Source: Escherichia coli
GTDB lineage: Bacteria; Pseudomonadota; Gammaproteobacteria; Enterobacterales; Enterobacteriaceae
DNA: 64,000 nt
Reading direction: 5' to 3' (one strand)
NCBI RefSeq assembly: GCF_003334765.1
Contig: NZ_QOWT01000004.1
Shown in pieces: positions 30,147 to 30,893 of the stretch. The position numbers and the translations under genes were made by a program. The first letter of the stretch is position 1. Each line of letters begins with the position of its first letter. The notes under the pieces were generated by a model, which searched no databases, was not told where the DNA came from, and saw nothing but the letters and a program-made list of their open reading frames with translations.

Positions 30147-30731
30147 CTATCCCATCAGCGGGTTTTTCCCTTCCCGACGTAACATCTGACACAGCGCGAT
30201 TAGCGGTAAACCAACCAGCGTGTTAGGATCACGCCCCTCTAAACGCTCAAACAGCGTAATGCCAAATCCTTCACTCTTAAAGCTACCCGCGCAGTGCAGG
30301 GGATGCTCTTTACGCACGTAATTATCAATCTCCGCCTCGCTCAGGTGACGGAAATGGACGTCAAAAGGCTCCACTTCTGTTTGCAGATGCCCATTCGCCG
30401 AATTAAACAACGCCAGTCCAGTATAGAAGGTGACGATATTGCCGCTGGCTTTGCGTAATTGCAGACGGGCATTTTCTTCCGTTAACGGTTTACCGGTGAT
30501 TTCGCCATCAAGAACACATACCTGGTCTGAACCAATAATTAAATGATCCGGATAACGTGACGCCAGAGATTGCGCTTTTTCTTGTGCCAGTCGAAGCACC
30601 AACTGTCGCGGTGATTCGTCGCTGCGTGGGGTTTCGTCGACCTCTGGTGCTGCACATTCAAAAGAGATTTGCAGTTTTTCCAGAAGAGCGCGACGCCATG
30701 GCGAGGTGGAGGCTAAAATAAGTTTAGGCAT
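30147..30731 (-). CDS. yceF: Maf-family nucleotide pyrophosphatase YceF, 194 aa
   Basis: ORF 30147-30770; recognised start at internal Met [35 protein letters not shown]... Confidence 0.9.
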
Positions 30732-30893
30732 ATTTTTTTCCATCAGATATAGCGTATTGATGATAGCCATTTTAAACTATGCGCTTCGTTTTGCAGGTTG
30801 ATGTTTGTTATCAGCACTGAACGAAAATAAAGCAGTAACCCGCAATGTGTGCGAATTATTGGCAAAAGGCAACCACAGGCTGCCTTTTTCTTT
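30725..30893 (+). ncRNA. sraB: Candidate small RNA SraB in the yceF-yceD intergenic region
   Basis: Recalled location of SraB between yceF and yceD; a stem-loop (AAAAGGCA / TGCCTTTT) plus T-run at about 30864-30893 fits a 3' end; 5' end is approximate. Confidence 0.4.

Follow-up and report, generated by a model that had tools for sequence, protein, structure and literature searches.

The region between yceF and yceD in the DNA analyzed here, a window of 64,000 nucleotides from an Escherichia coli genome (contig NZ_QOWT01000004.1), is almost certainly the sraB gene, which specifies a small non-coding RNA on the plus strand ended by an intrinsic terminator at position 30893. When the whole window was scanned against Rfam, three matches exceeded the threshold; one of them is SraB (RF00077), with a score of 210.6 bits (gathering threshold 130, E = 4.6e-44) and a match to model positions 1-169 of 169 without truncation. 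The matched segment is identical at 169 of 169 nt to sraB (b4418) of E. coli MG1655 (NC_000913.3, 1146589-1146757), the 9-kb stretch around it aligns to MG1655 without gaps and with a single mismatch (window position 1 being MG1655 1,115,865), and the gene order is the same there, with sraB between yceF and yceD. Sequence, strand, neighbours, terminator and mapped 3' end all coincide with those of SraB as catalogued (synonyms pke20 and psrA4); there is no sequence difference, and the two descriptions diverge in the 5' end, which RNA-seq puts at 30785 and which both the annotation and the Rfam model put at 30725. We found no evidence against this identity. The presence of sraB at this locus is already known, since the gene has been catalogued since 2001, is included in Rfam and in the K-12 annotation, and is a model ligand of ProQ.

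The original prediction, made from the sequence alone, had placed SraB on the yceD strand in a 198-bp gap between the divergent yceF and yceD genes, and had called the locus undetectable by ORF-based annotation. The annotated coordinates give a gap of exactly 198 bp, and the Rfam match has the predicted boundaries, 30725 and 30893 on the plus strand, so that both the location and the proposed alignment to the SraB reference were borne out. The stem-loop and T-run expected to end near 30893 were also found, with a stem-loop at 30863-30888 and a U-run ending at 30893, 36 nt before the yceD ATG. As for annotation, the PGAP-annotated genome NZ_CP025842.1 carries no sraB feature, and our genome hit tables show only yceF and yceD under the match. 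A 451-nt region around sraB occurs once per genome in 5425 of 5426 complete E. coli genomes. The first 7 nt of yceF lie opposite the annotated 5' end of SraB; the ORF finder reports a longer version of yceF (207 aa) that begins at an in-frame ATG further upstream. The features of the locus are listed in Table 1.

Table 1. Features of the yceF-sraB-yceD region in window coordinates.
Feature	Position	Strand	Basis or remark
yceF, Maf-family m7GTP pyrophosphatase	30147-30731	-	ORF list and MG1655 annotation; start codon end at 30731
TAAAAT, -10 box fitting the annotated 30725 start	30714-30719	+	Hexamer scan; within the yceF coding sequence
sraB as annotated (b4418) and in Rfam (RF00077), 169 nt	30725-30893	+	Rfam match and MG1655 identity
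Hairpin 1 (4-bp stem, 15-nt loop)	30742-30764	+	Rfam model 18-40
TAAAAT, -10 box for yceF	30774 to 30769	-	Fits the reported yceF start
TAAACT, -10 box serving the start at 30785, then the GC-rich discriminator ATGCGC	30773-30778	+	Hexamer scan; 6 nt before the start
56-nt block (hairpin 2, linker, 5' half of the hairpin 3 outer stem)	30782-30837	+	Alignment
SraB main transcript (probable), 109 nt, with hairpins 2 and 3 and the terminator	30785-30893	+	dRNA-seq start and Term-seq end
Hairpin 2, large 5' stem-loop	30785-30825	+	Rfam model 61-101
Hairpin 3 (inner stem CGCA/UGCG, loop AUGUG)	30835-30858	+	Rfam model 111-134
Intrinsic terminator (A-run, GC-rich stem, tail UUUUUCUUU)	30863-30893	+	Folds and Term-seq end
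Candidate yceD promoter, TTGACT-17 bp-TAATAT, then GCGCGCC	30892-30920	+	Promoter scan, 9/12 matches
yceD, DUF177, 23S rRNA accumulation protein	30930-31451	+	ORF list and annotation; first gene of yceD-rpmF

The evidence on transcript ends comes from published data on the identical sequence, obtained in strains other than that of the window. In two of the three supplementary entries for the sraB 3' end in the Term-seq study of Adams et al. 2021 (PMC7815308), which are those that we consulted, an end classed as primary and assigned to sraB lies at 1146757 on the plus strand, that is, at window position 30893. The expectation of a discrete plus-strand transcript of about 170 nt therefore stands for its 3' end and not for its length: a re-analysis of two dRNA-seq/Cappable-seq data sets (PMC7967276, Table S1) places the sraB start at 1146649, window position 30785, under all conditions, which gives an RNA of about 109 nt. 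According to the same study, a shorter product of about 105 nt had already been seen by Argaman et al., and the start mapped in Salmonella agrees with the short form; it also cites Argaman 2001 for detection of the SraB transcript on Northern blots and describes the RNA as abundant and steadily present in the re-analyzed RNA-seq data. The supplements of Ettwiller 2016 hold no entries for the sraB region.

The start at 30785 coincides with the foot of the large hairpin 2, and the 109-nt form folds more stably than shuffled sequences (z = -2.62, with 1 of 200 shuffles as good). The 169-nt form gains little over its shuffled counterparts (z = -1.57), so thermodynamic stability was dropped as evidence for it, and the case for the RNA is built on homology, covariation and the published transcript ends. 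The dominant SraB species is probably about 109 nt long rather than 169 nt. Based on the RNA-seq start and on the pattern of promoter conservation, the annotated gene probably opens with 60 nt (30725-30784) of promoter DNA and yceF 5' region that do not belong to the main RNA, and their conservation likely reflects the sraB promoter, the yceF 5' UTR and the yceF start codon.

Conservation differs markedly between the candidate -10 boxes. The sequence TTAAACT, which contains the box for the 30785 start, is kept in 15 of 15 aligned Enterobacterales, whereas the TAAAAT that would serve the annotated 30725 start is not conserved, being replaced by AAGTAT in Citrobacter and by AAGGAT in Salmonella. 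The 11-nt segment CATTTTAAACT (30768-30778), likewise conserved in all 15 genomes, holds both the plus-strand TAAACT and the minus-strand TAAAAT of yceF, for which a proximal start (P1) at 1146625 (window 30761) and a distal start at 1146700 (window 30836) have been reported (PMC7967276). The two boxes overlap by 2 bp and lie back to back, with the starts at 30785 (+) and 30761 (-) 24 bp apart, and sraB and yceF thus appear to share a back-to-back promoter core. In its 2-bp overlap of -10 boxes, the sraB/yceF pair resembles the divergent promoters described as the class of divergently transcribed ncRNAs (PMC7967276); SraB differs from that class in having a conserved structure and a terminator, and for this reason it is not just promoter noise.

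The structural elements of the RNA are conserved to different degrees. Hairpin 1 lies upstream of the dRNA-seq start and is within the RNA only in the long form. Hairpin 2 shows compensatory changes at five pairs among E. coli, E. albertii, Citrobacter and Salmonella, and its apex is hypervariable, within E. coli too. Over the 56-nt block that contains this hairpin, 93 E. coli genomes have 60-90% identity; two of them (L135 and L136) were examined and carry a second allele in which the apex is 78-82% identical, the flanks are nearly identical, and a different perfect stem, CUGGCA/UGCCAG, is formed. The inner stem and loop of hairpin 3 are conserved across the order, with the inner helix paired in 100% of the 14 sequences compared and an A-U pair changed to U-A in Pectobacterium and Ewingella. 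The terminator stem-loop can be written as AAAAGGCA.CC-ACA-GG.UGCCUUUU, with ACA as the loop and the U-run following it; its stem has 10 predicted base pairs, four of which join A's to the U's at the beginning of the run. Across the same 14 sequences, the terminator helix is 89.9% paired, three of its pairs have changed on both sides, and several replacements have occurred in the stem. When the inner part of hairpin 3 and the terminator are taken together, 92.7% of the alignment cells are in standard pairs, and sliding the 3' partners by 1-3 columns lowers this share to 33-52%; there are 10 double-change cells, and none of 500 shuffles reaches the observed covariation score. As these are only 14 distinct and related sequences, we regard the covariation of this core as supportive rather than conclusive. 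A simple consensus terminator scan did not flag the SraB terminator, probably due to the internal mismatch in its stem. The scan flagged only a site on the minus strand (30858 to 30836), which is at chance level and corresponds to the reverse of hairpin 3.

These features agree with what has been reported on the binding of SraB by ProQ. Co-immunoprecipitation with ProQ strongly enriches SraB, and binding in vitro has been documented by gel shift, HDX and SAXS, the last two with the 169-nt form (PMC5393179). [quoted passage not shown] The SraB terminator, AAAAGGCA...UGCCUUUUUCUUU, has such a hairpin with at least four U's and the A-rich motif on its 5' side, with AAAA at 30863-30866 pairing with UUUU at 30885-30888. 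In the 14 sequences, the central three A's of this run are invariant and the first varies between A and G only. SraB is in this respect like the ProQ-bound 3' UTRs of cspE and malM (PMC7367173), being highly structured and having an A-rich 5' flank paired with the beginning of the U tail; it differs from the ProQ-bound 3' UTR fragments in being an independent intergenic transcript. The hallmarks of Hfq-dependent class I sRNAs, an upstream U-rich stretch and a long single-stranded U tail, are lacking: the sequence 5' of the stem is A-rich instead and is paired with the tail. The SraB level is lower in a Klebsiella hfq mutant, an effect that may be indirect. SraB is also repressed more than 4-fold by ppGpp in Salmonella, is 5.1-fold up upon inhibition of replication, and varies in level with growth phase; a study in Salmonella Enteritidis, as cited in PMC7967276, linked it to survival in egg albumen.

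Relatives of the locus were identified by a YceD protein search followed by exact-protein look-up of the yceF-yceD region in 12 genomes. The layout yceF-sraB-yceD, with sraB on the yceD strand, is the same in the other Enterobacterales loci. Among the relatives, RF00077 scores above its threshold only in E. albertii (199.7 bits), Salmonella (199.1 bits) and Citrobacter (162 bits). Sub-threshold matches of 36-78 bits and about 111 nt were obtained in Enterobacter, Kluyvera, Klebsiella, Pluralibacter, Cronobacter, Pectobacterium, Erwinia, Buttiauxella and the locus L124; the latter comes from a record labelled Salmonella Choleraesuis, yet its sequence is divergent. In Pantoea and Ewingella, no RF00077 match was found at E <= 0.01, and the alignment shows the same layout. 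In the look-up loci, every Rfam match ends at locus position 1464, which is 36 nt before the yceD ATG. We also searched 298 Gb of contigs with the 17-nt pattern CCCGCNATGTGNGCGAA (15 specified bases), which yielded mostly chance matches; the relevant loci among the matches listed were from E. albertii (L020), Citrobacter werkmanii (L026) and E. coli (L114).

The low scores in the other genera are explained by the absence of the 56-nt block, which only the sequences from Escherichia, Salmonella and Citrobacter contain and which the 11 other genomes aligned lack. Without it, the small hairpin and the terminator remain, and the RNA would be about 52 nt long. All outgroups, including three other families, are without the block, and the simplest reading of this distribution, as far as sequence comparison can tell, would be a single gain in the Escherichia-Salmonella-Citrobacter lineage. 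A mobile-element origin of the block found no support and was discarded, given that each E. coli genome carries just one copy of it.

Within the intergenic region, conservation is highest in a stretch, CCTTTTTCTTTGACTCTATGACGTTACAAAGTTAATATGCGCGCCCTATGCAAAAGGTAAAATTACCCCTGAC, that starts at the T-run of the terminator and extends over roughly the first nine codons of yceD; between Escherichia and Ewingella it hardly varies. It contains a candidate yceD promoter (-35 TTGACT at 30892-30897, -10 TAATAT at 30915-30920 and a GC-rich discriminator), which is near-invariant across 15 Enterobacterales and would start transcription about 3 nt before the ATG at 30930. The 36-nt spacer between terminator and yceD has no Shine-Dalgarno sequence, and Nakahigashi et al. 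2014 (PMC4378010) list yceD as a gene without a 5' leader. The SraB 3' end at 30893 consequently falls inside the yceD -35 hexamer. Two yceD promoters, yceDp1 and yceDp2, are mentioned in a recent preprint that cites Tanaka 1989.

With the identity of the gene established, the function of its RNA admits several explanations. The one that we favour, tentatively and at a little short of an even chance, is that the approximately 109-nt SraB is a trans-acting sRNA: it would be stabilized by ProQ through its terminator hairpin, A-rich 5' flank and short U tail, and would then act in trans on targets. The enrichment with and binding to ProQ (PMC5393179), the ProQ-type terminator, the compensatory changes in hairpin 2, the covariation in hairpin 3 and the terminator, and the regulation by ppGpp (in Salmonella) and by replication inhibition all argue for it. 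It is weakened by the hypervariable apex of hairpin 2, which differs even within E. coli, by the shortness of the RNA outside Escherichia, Salmonella and Citrobacter (about 52 nt, with little conserved single-stranded seed), and by the probable position of the annotated 5' 60 nt outside the main RNA; moreover, in the literature that we could search, we found no target RNA of SraB and no target or phenotype in E. coli. A rather unlikely alternative is that the short transcript and its terminator are a local element that insulates or tunes the yceD-rpmF promoter, by occlusion or interference, or through a T-run that serves as upstream DNA of the promoter, and that the RNA is a by-product bound by ProQ. 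This would fit the constant distance of 36 nt between the end of the Rfam matches and the yceD ATG in the 12 look-up loci, the near-invariance in the order of the segment from the T-run through TTGACT-17-TAATAT to about nine yceD codons, the location of the SraB 3' end within the yceD -35, the back-to-back overlap of the sraB and yceF P1 -10 boxes, and an RNA of only about 52 nt in most genera. Nevertheless, two conserved elements that are packed closely need not interact, hairpin 2 was gained and then kept by compensatory changes, which argues for selection on the RNA itself, the binding to ProQ is strong and specific (PMC5393179), and the RNA is described as abundant (PMC7967276). The arrangement at the junction would be compatible with a local interplay of sraB transcription with yceD promoter use.

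Other explanations fare worse than a ProQ-stabilized trans-acting SraB. It is improbable that SraB is a prematurely terminated leader of yceD-rpmF, from which read-through would give the yceD mRNA, possibly in response to L32 or YceD. SraB is like the leaders and attenuators of ribosomal-protein operons in lying upstream of the rpmF operon, on the same strand as yceD and ending 36 nt before it, and in its GC-rich discriminator and terminator end; the discriminator and the ppGpp repression resemble those of ribosomal-protein promoters, and the distal one of the two yceD promoters cited in the literature, as far as the preprint conveys, could be the sraB promoter. The difference is that yceD has a good, near-invariant promoter of its own after the terminator, which argues against SraB being simply an attenuated leader, and that yceD is reported as leaderless (PMC4378010) and hence would not depend on read-through. 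The missing Shine-Dalgarno in the spacer points the same way, as do two minimum-free-energy folds, in which the terminator forms and its 5' arm does not pair with upstream sequence, and the classification of the 3' end as a primary sRNA end in the consulted entries of Adams et al. No protein-binding mimic was identified in SraB either. We also give little credence to a role as a cis-antisense RNA against the yceF mRNA. The 169-nt form would be antisense to the start codon of yceF and to all of its 5' region, with a 7-nt coding overlap, and the distal yceF start at 30836 (P2) would produce a 52-nt overlap even with the short form; however, an RNA that starts at 30785 overlaps neither the yceF coding sequence nor the 5' UTR that begins with P1 at 30761, the promoter of the long form is not conserved, and yceF transcription was unconfirmed in one of two RNA-seq data sets (PMC7967276). 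Lastly, we considered a small protein encoded instead of, or besides, the non-coding RNA, which we judge very improbable and have rejected. There are short plus-strand ORFs, such as the one from the ATG at 30845 that would yield MCANYWQKATTGCLFL (16 aa) and is kept in six close relatives, but it is kept only where the nucleotides are near-invariant because of hairpin 3 and the terminator, and it is broken in distant genera: Erwinia, Pantoea, Pectobacterium and Ewingella have no such ATG, and in Enterobacter and Pluralibacter the reading frame is shifted by indels within the loop of the terminator. In addition, no Shine-Dalgarno sequence precedes the 30845 ATG, and the substitutions in the stems track base pairing and not codons.

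An evolutionary scenario can be drawn for the locus, to which we assign a low probability. The ancestral, order-wide unit may have been a module of about 52 nt, made of the small hairpin and a ProQ-type terminator, transcribed from the reverse side of the yceF promoter and ending in the -35 of the leaderless yceD-rpmF promoter, where it would exert cis control on an operon for ribosome assembly and L32; the 56-nt hairpin would later have made it the stable, ProQ-bound SraB.

Our results have implications for how this RNA is found, modelled and studied. The original prediction placed a non-coding gene to the base from the sequence alone. The 5' boundary in the annotation and in Rfam probably includes 60 nt that lie outside the main RNA, and this affects the structure models and the binding studies carried out with the 169-nt form. 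Finally, the way in which the SraB terminator adjoins the promoter of the leaderless yceD is preserved across the order and provides a testable idea for a local function of this sRNA.

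In our analysis of the region between yceF and yceD, we identified a conserved CATTTTAAACT at window 30768-30778 in which the -10 hexamers of the small RNA gene sraB and of P1, the proximal yceF start, overlap on opposite strands; the reported starts of the two transcripts are separated by 24 bp. The alignment also revealed a TATAGCG box (30748-30754) that is kept across the order; counted from the start of SraB it spans approximately -37 to -31, and in the 5' UTR of the yceF P1 transcript it occupies +8 to +14. This box bears no resemblance to a sigma-70 -35 element.

The 56-nt block that includes hairpin 2, the large SraB stem-loop, has 60-90% identity in 93 of 5425 E. 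coli genomes. The two of these 93 that we read (loci L135 and L136) have near-identical flanks on both sides of the block, and they carry a second allele of the hairpin-2 apex, with 78-82% identity, which forms a different perfect stem. As for the window itself, it is K-12-like yet not the reference sequence, since within 9 kb its only mismatch to the MG1655 RefSeq sequence is a C instead of a T at 31880, which makes residue 42 of PlsX a proline (CCC) where MG1655 has a serine (TCC).

E. coli was compared with the yceF-yceD loci fetched from other Enterobacterales (L123-L134): the spacer between yceD and rpmF is 51 nt long in E. coli, Salmonella, and Cronobacter, and only 12-16 nt in the other fetched genera. 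One of these records, AP025685.1 (L124), carries the label Salmonella enterica serovar Choleraesuis; its YceD shares only 87% identity with the E. coli protein, and the 56-nt block present in the other Salmonella sequence is missing from its intergenic region. Judging from these two sequence features, the Salmonella label may be wrong. Two other Rfam matches were found in the window, of which the rne5 element is expected for the rne locus.

Features of the sraB region and other Rfam matches, in window coordinates
Feature	Position	Strand	Description
PyrC leader (RF02372)	6744-6793	-	Rfam match, 68.7 bits
RNase E 5' UTR element (rne5, RF00040)	28528-28864	-	Rfam match, 260.1 bits; upstream of rne
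TAAACT	within 30768-30778		-10 hexamer for sraB
TAAAAT	within 30768-30778	opposite to TAAACT	-10 hexamer for yceF P1
Hairpin-2 apex	30794-30815		second allele at positions ~164-185 in L135 and L136
SraB terminator/yceD promoter junction	30884-30955		in order: SraB terminator T-run, TTGACT-17-TAATAT, GC-rich discriminator, first ~9 yceD codons

The junction between the SraB terminator and yceD is near-invariant in the alignment of 15 Enterobacterales, synonymous sites included, and a Shine-Dalgarno sequence is absent from it. This junction is compatible with a leaderless yceD mRNA that would be made from a stringent-type promoter.
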